From sequence record NC_028881.1: 64,000 nucleotides of DNA; one strand, given 5' to 3'. Origin of the DNA: Escherichia phage vb_EcoM-VR5. Below are positions 15,453 to 36,225 of the stretch, one piece after another. The notes under the pieces were generated by a model. It did not search any database, was not told where the DNA came from, and saw nothing but the letters and a program-made list of their open reading frames with translations. How positions within the stretch are numbered: the stretch's first letter is position 1; the number at the start of each line of letters is the position of its first letter. The position numbers were made by a program, and so were the translations under genes.

Positions 15453-15794
15453 CTAATAGAAACTTTTTTCGCCGGCTTGTCCACTAAACCAGGCTGATTG
15501 GGTATTAGGTTTCCGTTGTTGCTCAATACGGGTACGATATTCTTTTCTTATGGCACAGAGGTCATCCTGGAAGTCGGCTGCCAACTTTACCTGCTTGCGG
15601 TCTAGATTTATTAAGGCCTGAGTCTTAGCTGCCAAGGCCAGTCTCTTGTAGTCTCCTTCTTCACAATCGGTTTTATAAACTCTACTAGCGTATCCATCGA
15701 TAAATTCTTTATCATAGTCTTTGATAGACTGTTCCATGGCATTAGAGTACTTCAACTCTGCTTTTATAAGGTCATAACTAAATTGTTCAAACAT
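15453..15794 (-). CDS. hypothetical protein
   Basis: 113 aa ORF downstream of the ATPase gene. Confidence 0.45.
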   Translation of the reverse strand: MFEQFSYDLIKAELKYSNAMEQSIKDYDKEFIDGYASRVYKTDCEEGDYKRLALAAKTQALINLDRKQVKLAADFQDDLCAIRKEYRTRIEQQRKPNTQSAWFSGQAGEKSFY

Positions 15795-15803
15795 AATTTA
15801 CCT

Positions 15804-16799
15804 TTATTTCAGAAGTGTAACTTCGGCAATTTCAGACCAATCATTAGAATCAGTAGCAATGAAATCAGCCAAATAGAGGGCGGTACGCAATGAAACATTA
15901 CGCAAACGTAATACATTAGCCTTCATCCATGAGAGTGCCTGGTAAGTCTGAGCGTCAGTCAGACCACGTTTCTGCATCATATCTGTAGACAGAATAACAT
16001 CTTCAACACGAACCATAATCTCTTCGTTAGAGTGAACACCGAGGTCTAAGTAAACTGAACGTGATACTAAAGCCTGAAGGTGTGGAGCAAGTTTAGTACC
16101 ACGTTCCAATTCACGGTCAATATCAACGTTAGTGATGAATACGATGGTGCCTTCAAACTCGAATTCTTTATCGATATTTTTATCATCGAGATAAGAACTT
16201 GAAGTGCTCCAACATACCTTACGTTTCTCACCGGTGTCCAATGCCGCTTTCAGAAGATTCAGAATATCCATATCAGAGAATACATCAACATCATCGATAA
16301 GAAGAACACTATTAGGGCCGCGGTTATTCCAAAGCTGCTCGTAAAGACCGATTCCACTAATCTTTCCGTTGATTGATTTATATTCGATAGTTTCATTTTC
16401 GTGGGCATTCTGTAATGCTTTATCCAATGAATATGTTTTACCAATACCTGCGGCACCAGAGATGATAAGGGAACGAATTTTACCATCGATGATTCCATTA
16501 GTCATCATGTTCATTACTTTAAAACGTTTGTTGATGCGGTGTTTCATTTCGTCCTGGGATTCAGTTACGACTGCAGGGGTTTCAACACCTTCAGTTTCGA
16601 TATCAGATTTGAACACCCATACACCACGCTCTACACCATCAATCTGAACAAAGACCTTACCATCGCCGAGGTGGGCTTCTGATTCATGAATTTTATTAGG
16701 GAACCAGGTTTTACCTGAACTCATGAACGTACCGGAGATTTCGTTACCGCGGTAGATGCCTTTGTTGATTTTGATAGTTAACATTTTATTATCCTTCAC
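15804..16799 (-). CDS. P-loop NTPase, AAA+-like ATPase of unknown function
   Basis: 331 aa; Walker A ISGAAGIGKTYS, Walker B VLLIDDVDVF, sensor-like IVFITNVD; N-terminal ~110 aa extra domain. Confidence 0.6.
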   Translation of the reverse strand: MKDNKMLTIKINKGIYRGNEISGTFMSSGKTWFPNKIHESEAHLGDGKVFVQIDGVERGVWVFKSDIETEGVETPAVVTESQDEMKHRINKRFKVMNMMTNGIIDGKIRSLIISGAAGIGKTYSLDKALQNAHENETIEYKSINGKISGIGLYEQLWNNRGPNSVLLIDDVDVFSDMDILNLLKAALDTGEKRKVCWSTSSSYLDDKNIDKEFEFEGTIVFITNVDIDRELERGTKLAPHLQALVSRSVYLDLGVHSNEEIMVRVEDVILSTDMMQKRGLTDAQTYQALSWMKANVLRLRNVSLRTALYLADFIATDSNDWSEIAEVTLLK

Positions 16800-16808
16800 T
16801 CATTTGTT

Positions 16809-16849
16809 TTGATAGGTCTATCTTAACACGATTAATCAGGTTGTAAACA
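16809..16849 (-). promoter_or_regulatory. promoter cassette, divergent PeSL-like copy (approximate)
   Basis: Window ttgataggtctatcttaaca ... gtaaac; RNA sense GTTTACA-N17-TAAGAT (weaker -10). Confidence 0.5.
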
Positions 16850-16867
16850 TTTTTTTGCACTAAACCC

Positions 16868-16889
16868 AAAAAAGGAACCCGAAGGTTCC
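16868..16889 (-). terminator. rho-independent terminator (approximate)
   Basis: RNA sense GGAACC-UUCG-GGUUCC followed by UUUUUUGGG, directly after the stop of 16896..17906. Confidence 0.65.
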
Positions 16890-16895
16890 TTAATA

Positions 16896-17906
16896 TTATC
16901 GATAATAGGCGTTGTGGTTTTCTAGATAAACCTCTTCAACAAATTTGTCCCAGAACTTCATATCTACCTTATCAGGCATACCGTTCTTGGCCGCCCAGAC
17001 GGCATTGGTTTCGACTTCATCGACGATTGCTTCAAGTTCAGCTTGTACATCTTTAAAAGCGTGTAGGCCTTGTTTGATTTCAAGGATAAATGGAGCCGTA
17101 CGTAAAGGATATTGGAGATCGCCTGTTTGATAGATTTCCTTTAACTGATATCCAGCGCGATAAGCATGACTCAGCGCTTTCCAATCAATACCTTCGTTAG
17201 CTTCAGCCTTACGAGCACGTTCGCCGTATTCAGCATCCAGTTTGTTCAGAGATTGCTTAAGCTCGATTAATGACAAAGTAGTTTGGTATTTACGTCCTAA
17301 GACAGTATAGAACGTTTGTGGGCCGGTTTTCTCATGGTTATGAAATACCCATTCACAGAATTCGTTCTCTGGAAGTCGATGCTTAATATCTTCAACTTTA
17401 GTACGACGATGTTTAGTCGAACCATCTTCTTGGTAGTCAACCCACTGTTCAGGAATCTGGTTAACAATTGACAGTACACCACGTAATGCAGCTAAACGAG
17501 AACCCTTAACACCATACTTAGAAGCTTGCTTACGGACGTACCCTAAATAGGCTTTCATGTTAGTCGTATAGAACCGAGAACGGTTGTCTTGGATAAATTT
17601 CCATACATCAGGTAAATCAGATTTGACCACTAGTTCAGGCGGGGTGTGGATCATATCCAGAGCTACAGTTTCACCTTCAGCAGCCAGTTTAAAGAAATAT
17701 TTCAGGCTGTAAAGCTCATGGTCAACATCGTCTTTAGTGTTTTTAGAAGCTGTGTTATTCGTGTTCAAGTTGGTATGGTTCATTGCCGTACCTAACAGAA
17801 TGTCACGCGCTGCAGGAACAAAGATTTCCTTAAAATCGACATCAGATTCCGGAGTACTTGTTCCATAAAGATGGCTACCGAAGTAGCCCTTCATAACTGT
17901 TCTCAT
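16896..17906 (-). CDS. Pol-beta-superfamily nucleotidyltransferase, substrate unknown
   Basis: 336 aa; N-terminal YFGSHLYGTSTPESDVDF fits the G[SG]x9-13Dh[DE] nucleotidyltransferase signature (KNTase/MNT-like), third acidic candidate in ETVALDMIH; helical C-terminal domain; start overlaps the upstream membrane gene (ATGA). Confidence 0.6.
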   Translation of the reverse strand: MRTVMKGYFGSHLYGTSTPESDVDFKEIFVPAARDILLGTAMNHTNLNTNNTASKNTKDDVDHELYSLKYFFKLAAEGETVALDMIHTPPELVVKSDLPDVWKFIQDNRSRFYTTNMKAYLGYVRKQASKYGVKGSRLAALRGVLSIVNQIPEQWVDYQEDGSTKHRRTKVEDIKHRLPENEFCEWVFHNHEKTGPQTFYTVLGRKYQTTLSLIELKQSLNKLDAEYGERARKAEANEGIDWKALSHAYRAGYQLKEIYQTGDLQYPLRTAPFILEIKQGLHAFKDVQAELEAIVDEVETNAVWAAKNGMPDKVDMKFWDKFVEEVYLENHNAYYR

Positions 17907-18355
17907 TTCTTCGCCTCAAAATGGATTACCGGACACATCTTAGATTTACGAGCTTTGATATATTGAATGAAAACGTTTTCTTTAGTTTCTAGGCCTTCAC
18001 GCTCAGCTTTAATTCGTTCCCATTCCTTTTCTTCTTTATGTGTATCGTACCAGGACCATAAATTCATTAGACCATACATTAAACCAAATGCTACCGCCAG
18101 AATAAGAGATAATGTAGCTAGTCCTAAAATAAACCCTAACCCTAAACCAACAGGAATACTTAATACAAAGAACTGGTCCAATACACCAGCACCTGCAACA
18201 GTTAAGGCGAAGATTGTACTACCAATAAAAACTGCACAAACAAAACAAGCCCATACAATTTTCCAGAAGTAAGCACACAAAGAGTGTGGTCGAGAATGAC
18301 GGTCATAAAAACGGTCGTGGAAACGAGCGTGCCAAGAGTTCGTATTGATAATCAT
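17903..18355 (-). CDS. integral membrane protein
   Basis: 150 aa; His/Arg-rich N-terminus, about three hydrophobic helices, charged C-terminal tail (EEKEWERIKAEREGLETKE). Confidence 0.5.
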   Translation of the reverse strand: MIINTNSWHARFHDRFYDRHSRPHSLCAYFWKIVWACFVCAVFIGSTIFALTVAGAGVLDQFFVLSIPVGLGLGFILGLATLSLILAVAFGLMYGLMNLWSWYDTHKEEKEWERIKAEREGLETKENVFIQYIKARKSKMCPVIHFEAKK

Positions 18356-18365
18356 AATATTTTCC

Positions 18366-18920
18366 TTAAGGGTTCATAGTTGGGATAATAGTGTTCAGGT
18401 ATTTTACCAGAACTTTTAATTCGTCTTTAGTGAATACTACTTCAGCTTCACCATCGTGGGTCTGGATGATAGATAACATATCACGACCCTCGTGTTGATG
18501 GACACTGAATTCAGTATTATAATCGCCTTCTTCATCACCTTCAAAGGTTTCGCTTGAATGTATAATAGCATCACAACCAGGAATTTTCCACTCGAGCTCA
18601 GGTACACACTCTTCTTGGAACAGTTTAAAAATTTTCTCTAAAAATTCTGAACGGTTTTTAATGGATAAACAAGCCCATTCGGTTTCCAGATTAAAGCCAC
18701 TTTCACCTCGATACAACCAAGCCATAACTTCATCGTTAATTTTAAAGACACGATTATGAGTTTGAATATACTGCTCTGCATCAATAACAGACAACTCATA
18801 CAGGTTCTGAATATCTTGAATGGTCAAAACTACTGTATCATCTTCTTGTTTAAGCACGATTGCATTATCAATTACATCGGCAGTCAGGTCACCAAACAAT
18901 TCAGCTGTTTCAATAATCAT
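18366..18920 (-). CDS. hypothetical acidic protein (184 aa)
   Basis: ORF at the head of the membrane-protein/NTase transcription unit. Confidence 0.45.
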   Translation of the reverse strand: MIIETAELFGDLTADVIDNAIVLKQEDDTVVLTIQDIQNLYELSVIDAEQYIQTHNRVFKINDEVMAWLYRGESGFNLETEWACLSIKNRSEFLEKIFKLFQEECVPELEWKIPGCDAIIHSSETFEGDEEGDYNTEFSVHQHEGRDMLSIIQTHDGEAEVVFTKDELKVLVKYLNTIIPTMNP

Positions 18921-18930
18921 TTTCTGTTCC

Positions 18931-19113
18931 TCATTTCACATTTTGTTTAATAAATTTTAATAATTCTTTAAGAGCTTTATCTTCTTCTTTGGAAAGCCTA
19001 GTACAATCATCAACCGAGTAATGGCGGCAAAATGCTGTTTCGAATCTAGCAACTGTATCTGCATAGGCCTCGATAAGCTCTTCAAGCTTTAAGTGCTTTT
19101 CTTTAGTTTTCAT
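18931..19113 (-). CDS. hypothetical small protein
   Basis: 60 aa ORF. Confidence 0.3.
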   Translation of the reverse strand: MKTKEKHLKLEELIEAYADTVARFETAFCRHYSVDDCTRLSKEEDKALKELLKFIKQNVK

Positions 19114-19116
19114 AAA

Positions 19117-19326
19117 TCACCGGTTATGTTTTAAAATACTATAAAGCTCTTCAACTTGGCTCGCATCCAGATAAATGACCTCGTCATCTTGTTCCAGGAC
19201 AATCCCACCCTTAACAATATTCCACTCTACTACTTCAACAGTCATATCATCACCGGAACCTGCTAATGTTTCAGGCTCTAAAGCAATAACGCCATTTTCA
19301 GAATTACCACTTGGATCGTATAACAT
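19117..19326 (-). CDS. hypothetical small acidic protein
   Basis: Track ORF 19117..19401 trimmed to ATG preceded by SD GAGGAA (MLYDPSGNSENG...). Confidence 0.35.
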   Translation of the reverse strand: MLYDPSGNSENGVIALEPETLAGSGDDMTVEVVEWNIVKGGIVLEQDDEVIYLDASQVEELYSILKHNR

Positions 19327-19417
19327 TACAGTTTCCTCGCTAACCATGAAAAGAATAAACCAATTAAAACAGGCCCTACAACCATTGTTAACCAAGCCCA
19401 AGGTTCAAGATAGTAAA

Positions 19418-19675
19418 TCATCTCATGCTCCTATGCCAACAGTTACGTGGCTCACGTTTAAAAATTTCATCATGCATCGCTTGACAACCAACACAATATA
19501 TCACACCCTTTATAGCTTGGCGTCGTGCTTCAGGAATTTTTTCATCGCAGTCAAAACAATATTCAGCGGATTCACGTTCAACAGCTACTTGCTTACGAGC
19601 GTGTACTATAGCGGCCTGGACGACCGCTTCCATTTCGAGCTGTTCGGCTCCGTCCTTAGCAAATCCAACAGCCAT
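19418..19675 (-). CDS. DksA/TraR-type C4 zinc-finger protein
   Basis: 85 aa with CFDCDEKIPEARRQAIKGVIYCVGCQ (C-x2-C-x17-C-x2-C), the TraR/DksA zinc-finger spacing. Confidence 0.5.
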   Translation of the reverse strand: MAVGFAKDGAEQLEMEAVVQAAIVHARKQVAVERESAEYCFDCDEKIPEARRQAIKGVIYCVGCQAMHDEIFKREPRNCWHRSMR

Positions 19676-19857
19676 TATGCTTTCAACTCATTAAGATACT
19701 CAACCAAGGCTGCTTTAGAGTTAGCCAAATCTCGTTTACACTGTTCTATCCCAGAATATGAATAGCCTTCGCAATGTTCTACTGCAATATCATAAGAATC
19801 GCGTTCAATAGCAGTAGCGAGTTTAATAATTTTTTCAATCTGTTCAGCGGTTAACAT
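19675..19857 (-). CDS. hypothetical small protein
   Basis: 60 aa ORF (MLTAEQIEKIIKLA...). Confidence 0.35.
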   Translation of the reverse strand: MLTAEQIEKIIKLATAIERDSYDIAVEHCEGYSYSGIEQCKRDLANSKAALVEYLNELKA

Positions 19858-19861
19858 AATA

Positions 19862-20098
19862 TCACCAGTATTTGTTGATGGTAGAAATTAATTCTTGGGC
19901 CTGAGTAGTCTTCAGCTTGCACCCACATCCATTTAATGTATCTTTAAGGAGCCATGGCTCCTTGAGCTCGTCCTTTTCTAGGCGAATTCTGTATCCTCGG
20001 TAATCAGCAAAGATACTTCGGTCATCAAATATCTTAATCTCAAGGAGACGGTTATTGATTTCGTATTCCAACGAAACCGTAGTACTTGTAAGTTTCAT
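19862..20098 (-). CDS. hypothetical protein
   Basis: 78 aa ORF directly downstream of the PeSL at 20105-20156. Confidence 0.4.
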   Translation of the reverse strand: MKLTSTTVSLEYEINNRLLEIKIFDDRSIFADYRGYRIRLEKDELKEPWLLKDTLNGCGCKLKTTQAQELISTINKYW

Positions 20099-20104
20099 AA
20101 TGTT

Positions 20105-20156
20105 CTCCTCATTAGTTGATAAGTCTATAGTATCATGTTCCTAGAGGATGTAAACA
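20105..20156 (-). promoter_or_regulatory. PeSL-like promoter/stem-loop cassette, approximate
   Basis: ttgataagtctatagtatca (1 mismatch to the 20-mer) flanked by cctc..tag / ctagagg, then gtaaac. Confidence 0.65.
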
Positions 20157-20164
20157 CCTAAACG

Positions 20165-20190
20165 AAAAAAGGTCCCACCGAAGTGAGACC
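20165..20190 (-). terminator. rho-independent terminator (approximate)
   Basis: RNA sense GGUCUCAC-UUCG-GUGGGACC followed by UUUUUUCG, after the stop of 20196..20582. Confidence 0.6.
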
Positions 20191-20195
20191 TTTGA

Positions 20196-21237: not shown

Positions 21238-21810
21238 TCAACTCGTTATTTCTATCCAATGCTTCCTGCATAATGACACGTAAGAATCGTTGCCACCTAT
21301 AGAAACTTGGTCGCCATCCTTAATTGCGATACCATTTTGGATACGAGCTGTCATAGTAGCCTTACGTCCACAATGGCACACACCTTTGTACTCAACGAGT
21401 TTATCTGCTGTAGCTAATAATTCAGCAGAGCCAGGAAACAGTTTACCCTGAAAATCAGTTCTTAGACCGTAACACATGACCGGTATATTATAATTATCTA
21501 CTATCTTTGCCAATTGTTTTATTTGCAAAGGTTCTAAGAACTGTGCTTCATCCACAAATACGCAGTGGATATCTTTTTGAGATTCAGCCCAACGATAGAA
21601 CTCGTATAGGTCCATGTCTGGAGTCACTGCATTAGCCTCTTGGCTAATCCCTATACGAGACGAAATTCTATGGCTTGATTCTCTATTATCTATCGCAGGC
21701 TTTAAAAGGAGTACACCCATACCACGTTCTTTATAGTTATGGGCAGCCGTTAGCAATGAAGAGGTCTTCCCAGAATTCATCGCCGCATAGTGAAACATCA
21801 AACTTGCCAT
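21238..21810 (-). CDS. tk: thymidine kinase
   Basis: 190 aa; P-loop MNSGKTSSLL, VFVDEAQF, C-terminal zinc ligands CHCGRKA...SLCRKH; T4 Tk-like size and position. Confidence 0.93.
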   Translation of the reverse strand: MASLMFHYAAMNSGKTSSLLTAAHNYKERGMGVLLLKPAIDNRESSHRISSRIGISQEANAVTPDMDLYEFYRWAESQKDIHCVFVDEAQFLEPLQIKQLAKIVDNYNIPVMCYGLRTDFQGKLFPGSAELLATADKLVEYKGVCHCGRKATMTARIQNGIAIKDGDQVSIGGNDSYVSLCRKHWIEITS

Positions 21811-22535
21811 TTAGATACAATTCCTCTATAAGAACAATCGGGATAACCTTTACTCAAGGCTATCTTTTTAAACATATACGCCGAGGGTTTATTAGATTCT
21901 TCCCATAGTATTTTCAATTCATCATAATATTTCCAAGTCTCATTTCTAATAGGAGAAGGTTTTCCTTTCATTGCGCCCTGTTTACCAAACATAGGATTCT
22001 TTTCACCCTTTTTAGAATCGCTCATGTTTTTAATAGTAGCACATGAATGCTTAAAGCCTTTTAATTTTTTAGAAGCGAGACCTATTTTAGCCTTATGTTC
22101 ATCCGTAAATCCTATTCTATTCGAATAGTGGTTTGCGCCTTTATTAGAAGTGGTATATTTAGAAGCTTCTATTCTCGCAGCACTCCATTTAACTCCTTTT
22201 TTGGACCTGGACATTTTACATTTAGTTAGCAATGATAACTTAGTTCCTTTCTTTTTGCCGCGTCCGCCATCGGCAAAATTTAAAGAATGCTTTCCATATT
22301 TTAATTTAGCTTTTTCTACTAAAGGAACTTCAGCATCGTAAGCTTCATCTTCAGTTTCAAAGAATTTTAATATACGGGTTTTATAAGGGTGCTTTTTGCA
22401 AATATTTTTAACAACAGTGCCACTTCCAAAATACCCATCAGAAAGATTATCAGTAGAATGTTTTCCTACGTAATAATATTTTGCCTTGAGGGTTTTTATT
22501 ACAGTTAAATAATTATAATGGAATTCCTTTACCAT
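21798..22535 (-). CDS. GIY-YIG-type homing endonuclease (Seg-like), free-standing
   Basis: 245 aa; N-terminal NYLTVIKTLKAKYYYVGKHS...GYFGSG resembles the GIY-YIG module; Lys-rich NUMOD-like repeats in the C-terminal half; 3' end overlaps the tk start. Confidence 0.55.
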   Translation of the reverse strand: MVKEFHYNYLTVIKTLKAKYYYVGKHSTDNLSDGYFGSGTVVKNICKKHPYKTRILKFFETEDEAYDAEVPLVEKAKLKYGKHSLNFADGGRGKKKGTKLSLLTKCKMSRSKKGVKWSAARIEASKYTTSNKGANHYSNRIGFTDEHKAKIGLASKKLKGFKHSCATIKNMSDSKKGEKNPMFGKQGAMKGKPSPIRNETWKYYDELKILWEESNKPSAYMFKKIALSKGYPDCSYRGIVSKWQV

Positions 22536-35941: not shown

Positions 35942-36017
35942 TGGTCGAGACAGTAGGGATCGAACCTACGACCTAGGACTTAGAAGGTCCTTGCTCTTCC
36001 TTCTGAGCTATGCCTCG
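35942..36017 (-). tRNA. tRNA-Arg (anticodon TCT, reads AGA); approximate coordinates
   Basis: Hand-folded: acceptor CGAGGCA/TGTCTCG, D arm GCTC/GAGC, anticodon stem AGGAC/GTCCT with loop CTTCTAA, T arm GTAGG-TTCGATC-CCTAC, encoded ACCA end. Confidence 0.75.
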
Positions 36018-36151: not shown

Positions 36152-36225
36152 TGGTGGCCCTGGGTGGAATCGAACCACCATCCAGCGATTATGAGTCGCT
36201 CGCTTGACCGTCCAGCTACAGGGCC
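36152..36225 (-). tRNA. tRNA with CAT anticodon (Met, or Ile2-type reading AUA as in T4); approximate coordinates
   Basis: Hand-folded: acceptor GGCCCTG/CAGGGCC, anticodon stem AGCGA/TCGCT with loop CTCATAA, T arm GGTGG-TTCGATT-CCACC, encoded ACCA end. Confidence 0.7.

Follow-up and report, generated by a model that had tools for sequence, protein, structure and literature searches.

NrdC.11 of Escherichia phage vb_EcoM-VR5, a long-form member of the RlaP nucleotidyltransferase family with a proposed role in tRNA repair

Among the described systems closest to the locus analysed here are the RlaP family of RNA-end nucleotidyltransferases (NTases) and the tRNA-repair pathway of phage T4. The locus lies within a 64,000-nucleotide stretch of Escherichia phage vb_EcoM-VR5 (NC_028881.1; the whole stretch is called the window below) and centres on nrdC.11, a minus-strand gene (16896..17906) whose 336-amino-acid (aa) product is assigned to the RlaP family. 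PfRlaP and PaRlaP, encoded in Pseudomonas RtcB-RlaP-RtcA operons, add one or two nucleoside monophosphates (NMPs) to the 3'-OH of RNA with a preference for Mn2+, and do not use DNA or protein as substrates; with a mimic of a cleaved tRNA, the 5' half is their preferred substrate, and they partly rescue the aminoacylation of a tRNA missing one anticodon-loop nucleotide. The 3'-OH end that they leave is chemically suited to a 5'-phosphate ligase such as Rnl1 (PMC12776372). For phages, a role of RlaP in replacing lost nucleotides ahead of ligation has been predicted (PMC7824862). The T4 pathway, in which Pnk (PseT) and Rnl1 counter the nuclease PrrC, follows the same logic of healing and sealing as the one proposed below for NrdC.11, and the nuclease RloC, which excises the wobble nucleotide, has been proposed to defeat this repair (PMC2610378). 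A paper of 2006 already listed the nrdC.11 product as a nucleotidyltransferase of COG3541 and that of nrdC.10 as an AAA ATPase (PMC1524935), and a preprint of December 2025 placed T4 NrdC.11 in the RlaP family, in cluster 5 of a sequence similarity network (SSN) (PMC12776372). Both the family of the NTase and its probable role in RNA repair have been published, and about 1500 sequenced phages carry the gene, so that the window adds one orthologue rather than a discovery. The additions made here are modest: a long RlaP subfamily, found paired with canonical RlaP in the repair operons of bacteria, a hypothetical link, seen in two lineages, between a phage membrane protein and RNA-repair genes, and a set of records mislabelled as thioredoxin.

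The region is the mobD.1, membrane-gene, nrdC.11 and nrdC.10 block of a Dhakavirus-like T4-type coliphage, and shows 94.8% nucleotide identity to phage ESCO10 and about 87% to phages JS98 and JS10. Its four open reading frames (ORFs) follow one another in the same orientation on the minus strand and encode 184, 150, 336 and 331 aa, the last figure being that of a mechanical ORF call. A first-pass annotation, made from the letters of the window, described these four ORFs accurately and was correct in calling an NTase, a membrane protein and an AAA+-like ATPase; it could not place them among known T4 genes, and we identified them, apart from the membrane gene, as orthologues of mobD.1, nrdC.11 and nrdC.10. 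NrdC.11 itself is 96% identical to the JS98 and 83% identical to the T4 protein. The signature on which the NTase call was based, GSHLYGTSTPESDVDF, occupies residues 10-25, and the protein has the catalytic set of Pol-beta NTases, namely a G-S turn, a D-x-D motif and a third conserved Asp. In a search against Pfam, residues 8-133 matched positions 25-141 of the 249 of the RlaP model (PF10127) with 38.9 bits against a gathering score of 23 (E 1e-9), and the protein matched the 'nucleotidyltransferase' family phrog_388 with an E value of 2e-131. All of the listed homologues that have a Pfam entry carry a precomputed PF10127 assignment. An exhaustive search returned 3088 cluster representatives at E<=1e-3, with alignments spanning the full length of the protein, and the family occurs in 1538 records of the phage collection. 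Across 106 diverse aligned sequences, G10, S21, D22, D24, N56, Y131, H247, R250 and P267 were invariant and S11, D60, D62 and D84 nearly so; D62 falls on an Asp that is invariant in canonical RlaPs. The AlphaFold2 (AF2) model, with a mean predicted local distance difference test (pLDDT) score of 94.8, consisted of an alpha/beta NTase domain at the N-terminus, a beta-rich insert at about residues 150-210 and C-terminal helices at 213-335. A search of the available PDB sequences gave no relative of NrdC.11. Judged by its sequence, NrdC.11 is a member of the RlaP family.

Natural variation and misannotation were both seen among the homologues. That of Krischvirus MIZ5 (L002, 5001-5699) is only 232 aa long, and its matches to the window protein cover residues 1-130 and 241-328; it naturally does without the middle region, including the beta-rich insert. 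Orthologues of NrdC.10 and NrdC.11 are often labelled 'thioredoxin' in public records, and one is labelled 'HNH homing endonuclease'. The thioredoxin labels appear to have been propagated from the gene symbol nrdC.x, as neither protein had a thioredoxin match in the Pfam search.

PfRlaP and PaRlaP resemble NrdC.11 in the G-S...D-x-D...D core and, as far as the AF2 model suggests, in the layout of an NTase domain followed by a helical domain, the last helix of which packs back on the NTase domain in the PfRlaP crystal structure, but they belong to SSN cluster 1a rather than cluster 5, and NrdC.11 is about 70-80 residues longer than canonical RlaP and carries the beta-rich insert. When profiles of the long and short forms were compared, only residues 1-130 aligned (probability 94%, E 1e-7). 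Since the alignment is confined to this part, NrdC.11 is best classified as belonging to a distinct long RlaP subfamily, which has the catalytic half in common with canonical RlaP and a C-terminal half of its own. A scan of GTDB genomes yielded 80 cellular loci with full-length relatives of 34-51% identity, 46 of them with full flanks, and their neighbours were clustered and the recurrent clusters identified with Pfam. The commonest neighbour families were all RNA-repair proteins:

Short canonical RlaP paralogue (about 255-275 aa, 175-246 bits to PF10127), usually directly downstream: 17/80 loci
Pnkp (kinase-phosphatase-ligase): 8/80 loci
Hen1: 6/80 loci
RtcB: 5/80 loci
Ro60/TROVE: 4/80 loci
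RtcA: 2/80 loci

Of the 80 loci, 28 had at least one RNA-repair neighbour; among the 46 with full flanks the figure was 21. Operons with the order RtcA, long form, short RlaP, Hen1 (L087) and Pnkp, long form, short RlaP (L111) are examples. The setting of the cellular relatives matches the operonic RNA-repair setting of PfRlaP and PaRlaP; unlike in those operons, NrdC.11 is encoded in the phage with no ligase gene adjacent, and the association with RNA repair is a property of the clade, not one seen in cis in the phage. The tandem of a long NrdC.11-type gene (about 310-330 aa) directly followed by a short RlaP gene (about 255-275 aa) was seen in, among others, the bacterial operons L098, L065 and L055, and a search of the 64-kb window found no short canonical RlaP.

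From these data we consider it reasonably probable that NrdC.11 restores nucleotides lost from cleaved and trimmed tRNAs before the phage Pnk and Rnl1 heal and seal them. The two-metal site formed by the G-S...D-x-D...D residues would transfer one or a few NMPs onto the 3'-OH of a damaged RNA, most likely a tRNA 5' half left after an RloC-type host nuclease has cleaved and then trimmed the anticodon loop. Pnk, healing the ends, and Rnl1, sealing them, both encoded elsewhere in the genome, would then rebuild the full-length tRNA; the relative JS98 encodes pseT and rnlA. As compared with the classical T4 Pnk/Rnl1 pathway, NrdC.11 would contribute an additional step of nucleotide restoration. If this is true, tRNA repair in T4-like phages would include a third step directed against RloC-type defences; the question of whether such defences have a counter has stood since 2008. 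Several points weigh against this proposal. The biochemistry of RlaP covers PfRlaP and PaRlaP only, which are cluster 1a proteins and neither phage-encoded nor long-form (PMC12776372), and the C-terminal half of the long form, presumed to bind the substrate, differs from that of canonical RlaP. The tandems of long and short forms argue that the two are not redundant, and the long form may act differently. In JS98, pseT and rnlA lie about 85 kb from nrdC.11, nor are they adjacent to it in T4-like phages, and 52 of the 80 cellular loci have no repair neighbour within 5 kb. Furthermore, losses of the nrdC.11-mobD.3 fragment were seen among genome-reduced T4 mutants (PMC9825161), and for this reason nrdC.11 is probably dispensable on laboratory hosts.

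The 150-aa product of the gene preceding nrdC.11 (phrog_944) is a membrane protein, as the first-pass annotation had it. A continuous hydrophobic block at about residues 27-100 is flanked by charged termini, and its length would accommodate two or three helices, three having been described. In the family alignment, an N-terminal SWHxR..LCxY and a C-terminal YxKA..KxC motif are conserved on either side of a variable hydrophobic core of about 74 residues; the conserved C-terminal tail reads YIKARKSKxCP. The gene ends in an ATGA (17903-17906) that also holds the start of the NTase gene, which confirms the overlap reported earlier; the same -4 overlap is present in nine related phage loci, and the membrane gene is predicted to be translationally coupled to the NTase gene. 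The protein is 73% identical to its JS98 counterpart and is absent in T4, where mobD, an HNH homing endonuclease gene (L004, 10430-11209), fills the slot of the membrane gene (window 17903-18355). The family is found in 1095 records of the phage collection; its distant members came from tblastn and a scan of IMG/VR, while the word-index protein search gave relatives at the Dhakavirus level only. In unrelated Pseudomonas Pakpunaviruses (PAK_P1, L010 3923-6767; IMG/VR contigs L035 and L041), the family lies inside a putative RNA-repair cassette with the order Metallophos phosphoesterase, a small ORF without Pfam match, helix-turn-helix (HTH) protein, membrane protein, Rnl1-type ligase (PF09511, 37.9 bits against a threshold of 28.3; phrog_562) and AAA_33 kinase. 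The membrane family is thus linked to RNA-end enzymes in two independent lineages; other loci have no such neighbours. We suggest, as a doubtful hypothesis, that the phrog_944 protein may serve the RNA-end-repair enzymes of phages as a dedicated partner, tethering or regulating tRNA repair at the inner membrane, and, linked to this, that long RlaP may differ functionally from canonical RlaP, the two forming a two-enzyme step in bacterial Pnkp/Hen1 and Rtc operons of which phages keep only the long half.

A few further observations concern this family. PRPP synthase and NAMPT genes come after the Pakpunavirus cassette. In phage TadeuszReichstein, only residues 1-64 of the membrane protein find a match. 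In locus L034, the 343-aa gene downstream of the membrane gene belongs to phrog_24943 ('DNA polymerase') and has a FGDIDVLV motif by eye; searches of Pfam and PDB sequences gave no confirmation of a Pol-beta NTase. The label 'polynucleotide kinase' on the membrane gene of ESCO10 (L003, OM386655.1) was rejected, because the product names in this record, including 'spanin' on neighbouring genes, are shifted relative to the genes; tk, for example, is called 'lysis inhibition accessory protein'.

Other activities of the NTase were weighed against the gene context and the profile searches. NrdC.11 might act on RNA 3' ends in another way, by repairing or extending the 3'-CCA of tRNAs or by tailing host or phage transcripts to alter their stability. 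Such a role would suit the broad activity of the characterised RlaPs, which label RNAs of rRNA, tRNA and fragment size, accept all four nucleoside triphosphates (NTPs) and discriminate little between them (PMC12776372), and it would also suit the different C-terminal half of the long form, its co-occurrence in bacteria with canonical RlaP, which suggests a distinct substrate, and the lack of linkage between nrdC.11 and pseT/rnlA in phages. However, the cellular context consists specifically of Pnkp/Hen1, Rtc and Ro60 repair operons, and the CCA-adding and poly(A) polymerase models of Pfam and NCBIfam were unmatched, so that we regard this explanation as unlikely. The first-pass annotation had offered antibiotic and protein nucleotidylyl transferases, MNT-type antitoxin partners and cyclic-nucleotide synthases as candidate families, and with them the modification of host proteins or nucleic acids, a signalling nucleotide or an exclusion function. 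None of these families was supported: for CD-NTase, MNT/HEPN, ANT and Cid1, hidden Markov model (HMM) searches of NCBIfam and Pfam stayed below threshold, PADLOC reported no CD-NTase or other defence match, and the resemblance was one of generic fold, the likeness to ANT/kanamycin NTases being at the level of fold and not of family membership. RlaP fits instead, and membership in it points to RNA 3'-end repair rather than to signalling, the modification of antibiotics or proteins, or exclusion. That the enzyme nucleotidylylates a protein or small molecule, as an ANT-type enzyme, an MNT-type antitoxin or an AMPylator would, appears very unlikely; weak matches to MntA and NTP_transf_2 speak for it, but their scores are far under the cut-offs (MntA, 13 against 60 bits in NCBIfam; NTP_transf_2, E 0.16 in Pfam), the characterised RlaPs left E. 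coli proteins unlabelled (PMC12776372), the adjacent genes encode a membrane protein and an AAA+ ATPase and no HEPN partner gene is present, and the context of the cellular relatives is RNA repair.

The arrangement of genes invites two further comparisons. Hailong belongs to host defence rather than to phages; its operon consists of two genes, one for a transmembrane protein and one for an NTase (PMC13434031). Here, too, a membrane gene is apparently coupled in translation to an NTase gene, and HalB, the Pol-beta NTase of Hailong, was the best structural match of NrdC.11. By analogy, the NTase could make an oligonucleotide that gates the membrane protein, or one that mimics the host signal and keeps a host HalA channel shut. 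The identity to HalB is, however, only 11%, and profile searches of PDB sequences detected neither HalB nor HalA; HalB has 217 aa as compared with 336 and self-primes oligo-dA, and HalA is a tetrameric channel with a cytoplasmic crown, in contrast to the 150-aa protein of the phage. In addition, the family is RlaP with its RNA-repair context, the membrane protein pairs with an RNA ligase in other phages, and PADLOC gave no match, although its 2023 library may lack Hailong. Because a sequence relationship to HalA or HalB is absent, we rejected membership in Hailong, and a Hailong-like function seems extremely improbable. The membrane protein, NTase and AAA+ ATPase might, on the other hand, form one functional module, either for exclusion or anti-defence or as a membrane-tethered repair machine. 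In the 25 T4-like loci that have both the membrane and the NTase gene, the order and strand of these two are conserved, and in 21 of them the ATPase gene follows on the same strand; the two genes overlap or lie no more than 20 nt apart in 11 of the 25, and the Pakpunavirus family member lies between the HTH gene and the Rnl1/AAA_33 pair, with Metallophos upstream. The co-occurrence check nevertheless revealed a patchy distribution, which weakens the module suggested in the first-pass annotation. In T4, mobD takes the place of the membrane gene; within 6 kb of the NTase, phages of Aeromonas, Citrobacter, Vibrio and Agrobacterium have neither the ATPase nor a detectable match to the membrane protein; and 13 IMG/VR loci and Aeromonas phage avDM6 have the membrane gene but neither an NTase nor a ligase less than 5 kb from it. 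Moreover, nrdC.10 is in every case served by a promoter of its own and never runs into the NTase gene, and the count of partner genes beside cellular relatives of NrdC.11 is 0/3. A single module is accordingly quite unlikely, and the four genes are not an obligate one, NrdC.10 and the membrane protein being frequent but dispensable neighbours. Conservation relative to JS98 is 96% for both the NTase and the ATPase, far above the 73% of the membrane protein and the 67% of MobD.1.

The features of the locus, from the upstream boundary of the transcription unit onwards, are as follows:

20168..20193, minus strand: UUCG-loop intrinsic terminator with an 11-bp stem, TTCG loop and T-run; closes the upstream rI.-1 unit and marks the upstream boundary of the unit
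20127..20154, minus strand: candidate early-type promoter, GTTTACA-N16-TACTAT with a TG, a consensus match only; probable start of the eight-ORF unit
19862..20098, minus strand: 78-aa ORF, first gene of the unit, with no family match
19675..19857, minus strand: 60-aa DUF7438 protein, MobD.3-like (PF24219, E 1.7e-16); JS98 has mobD.3 at the equivalent position
19418..19675, minus strand: 85-aa DksA/TraR-type C4 zinc-finger protein (PF01258, E 5e-9)
19117..19326, minus strand: DUF7189 protein, probably 69 aa from an internal ATG (PF23819, E 2e-28, alignment from residue 26; 69 aa in the ESCO10 annotation)
18931..19113, minus strand: second DUF7438 paralogue, 60 aa (E 8e-5)
18366..18920, minus strand: MobD.1 orthologue, acidic, 184 aa (Pfam T4_y05I_N and T4_y05I_C, 'putative transcription factor'; phrog_1502)
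17903..18355, minus strand: 150-aa membrane protein (phrog_944, RB69 ORF104c-like; hydropathy, alignment and ATGA overlap with the NTase gene)
16896..17906, minus strand: NrdC.11 orthologue, 336-aa long-form RlaP-family Pol-beta NTase (profile, alignment and model evidence)
16872..16891, minus strand: UUCG-loop intrinsic terminator closing the eight-ORF unit; 8-bp hairpin, AAGGAACC-TTCG-GGTTCCTT, then a T-run
16820..16847, minus strand: early-type promoter for nrdC.10, GTTTACA-N16-TAAGAT with an upstream TG; equivalents in T4, JS98 and Lazarus
15804..16784, minus strand: NrdC.10 orthologue, 326-aa AAA+ ATPase (profiles, alignment and AF2 model)
15453..15794, minus strand: 113-aa DUF7203 protein, starting 9 nt after nrdC.10

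The transcription unit had been described as three genes closed by a UUCG terminator. The terminator, at 16891..16872, was found as described, but the unit most probably comprises eight ORFs and begins at the promoter 20154..20127, directly after the terminator 20193..20168, since the 184-aa gene is separated from the ORF upstream by only 10 nt, too short a distance for a promoter. The DUF7189 gene had been extended to 94 aa, with a TTG start at 19401, in the mechanical ORF call. At the other end of the unit, a terminator followed by a promoter occupies the same position between nrdC.11 and nrdC.10 in T4 and JS98. The stems differ and yet pair, and the UUCG loop is kept, which makes this junction a conserved feature beyond a chance match to a consensus; Acinetobacter phage Lazarus also keeps the nrdC.10 promoter. 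As compared with the nrdC-mobD region of T4, the NrdC.11, NrdC.10 and MobD.1 orthologues have the same order and strand, while the window phage, JS98 and many T-even-like phages have the 150-aa membrane gene where T4 has mobD, and the content of small ORFs upstream is unlike that of T4.

The nrdC.11/nrdC.10 junction is also an insertion hot spot, with gaps of 21-1440 nt across phages. In JS98 (L001, 4786-5204, corresponding approximately to window 16785-16895), a small extra ORF lies between two copies of the promoter-like GTGTACATCTGCTTTAAACATGTTATTATAGACCTATCA, which includes a TGCTT MotA-box-like element. A perfect GGCUAC-UUCG-GUAGCC hairpin was noticed within codons 7-12 (GYFGSH) of the NTase gene (window 17873-17888, minus strand); it is present in the window, ESCO10, JS98, L028 and, with a UUUG loop, L022, and absent from T4 and L032. 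As it is missing in T4 and other phages with different codons, it is probably a by-product of the GYFGSH codons.

With an isoelectric point of 4.26 and 38 D+E against 13 K+R residues, the 184-aa MobD.1 is acidic, as had been stated. Both T4_y05I domains scored well above threshold in Pfam (PF24449, 109 bits against 24.9; PF24448, 74.5 against 27), and the identity was 67% to the JS98 and 32% to the T4 protein. The N-terminus of MobD.1 and the DUF7189 ORF have a weak motif in common (E 0.017 for MobD.1 versus DUF7189), and two DUF7438 paralogues of 60 aa each stand within the one transcription unit. Against PDB sequences, the sole matches of MobD.1 were Nematostella STING chains (E about 0.3, 14 bits, residues 86-163), which are not significant.

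The last of the four genes had been called a separately promoted P-loop ATPase of 331 aa. Its promoter and Walker A motif were confirmed, and its length was revised: the start is very probably the ATG at 16784, giving 326 aa, because a GAAGGA Shine-Dalgarno sequence precedes this ATG, the JS98 orthologue has 326 aa and the PHROG alignment begins at residue 6. NrdC.10 matched phrog_1250, is 96% identical to the JS98 and 78% to the T4 protein, and belongs to a family with 1310 records in the phage collection. Residues 1-65 form an N-terminal beta domain, which is followed by an AAA+ core (Walker A at 110-117, Walker B D164 D165) and a helical lid (253-324), and the AF2 model has a pLDDT of 90.4; the Walker A sequence GAAGIGKT and Walker B are invariant in 60 homologues. 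With these motifs, the alpha/beta core and the lid, NrdC.10 is a genuine, generic AAA+ ATPase. All Pfam AAA and STAND models scored below their gathering scores and gave no clade-specific assignment; it fits none of the MoxR (NorQ/CbbQ), NtrC-type, DnaA/Hda, ORC/Cdc6 and RFC clades specifically, and its N-terminal beta domain is its own. The DUF7203 gene that follows is probably co-transcribed with nrdC.10.

Elsewhere in the window, a 245-aa ORF (21798-22535, minus strand) overlaps the start of tk and has an N-terminus (YYYVGKH...YFGSG) that is GIY-YIG/Seg-like by eye only. The phage also carries minus-strand tRNA genes, tRNA-Arg(TCT) at 35942-36017 and tRNA-Met(CAT) at 36152-36225.

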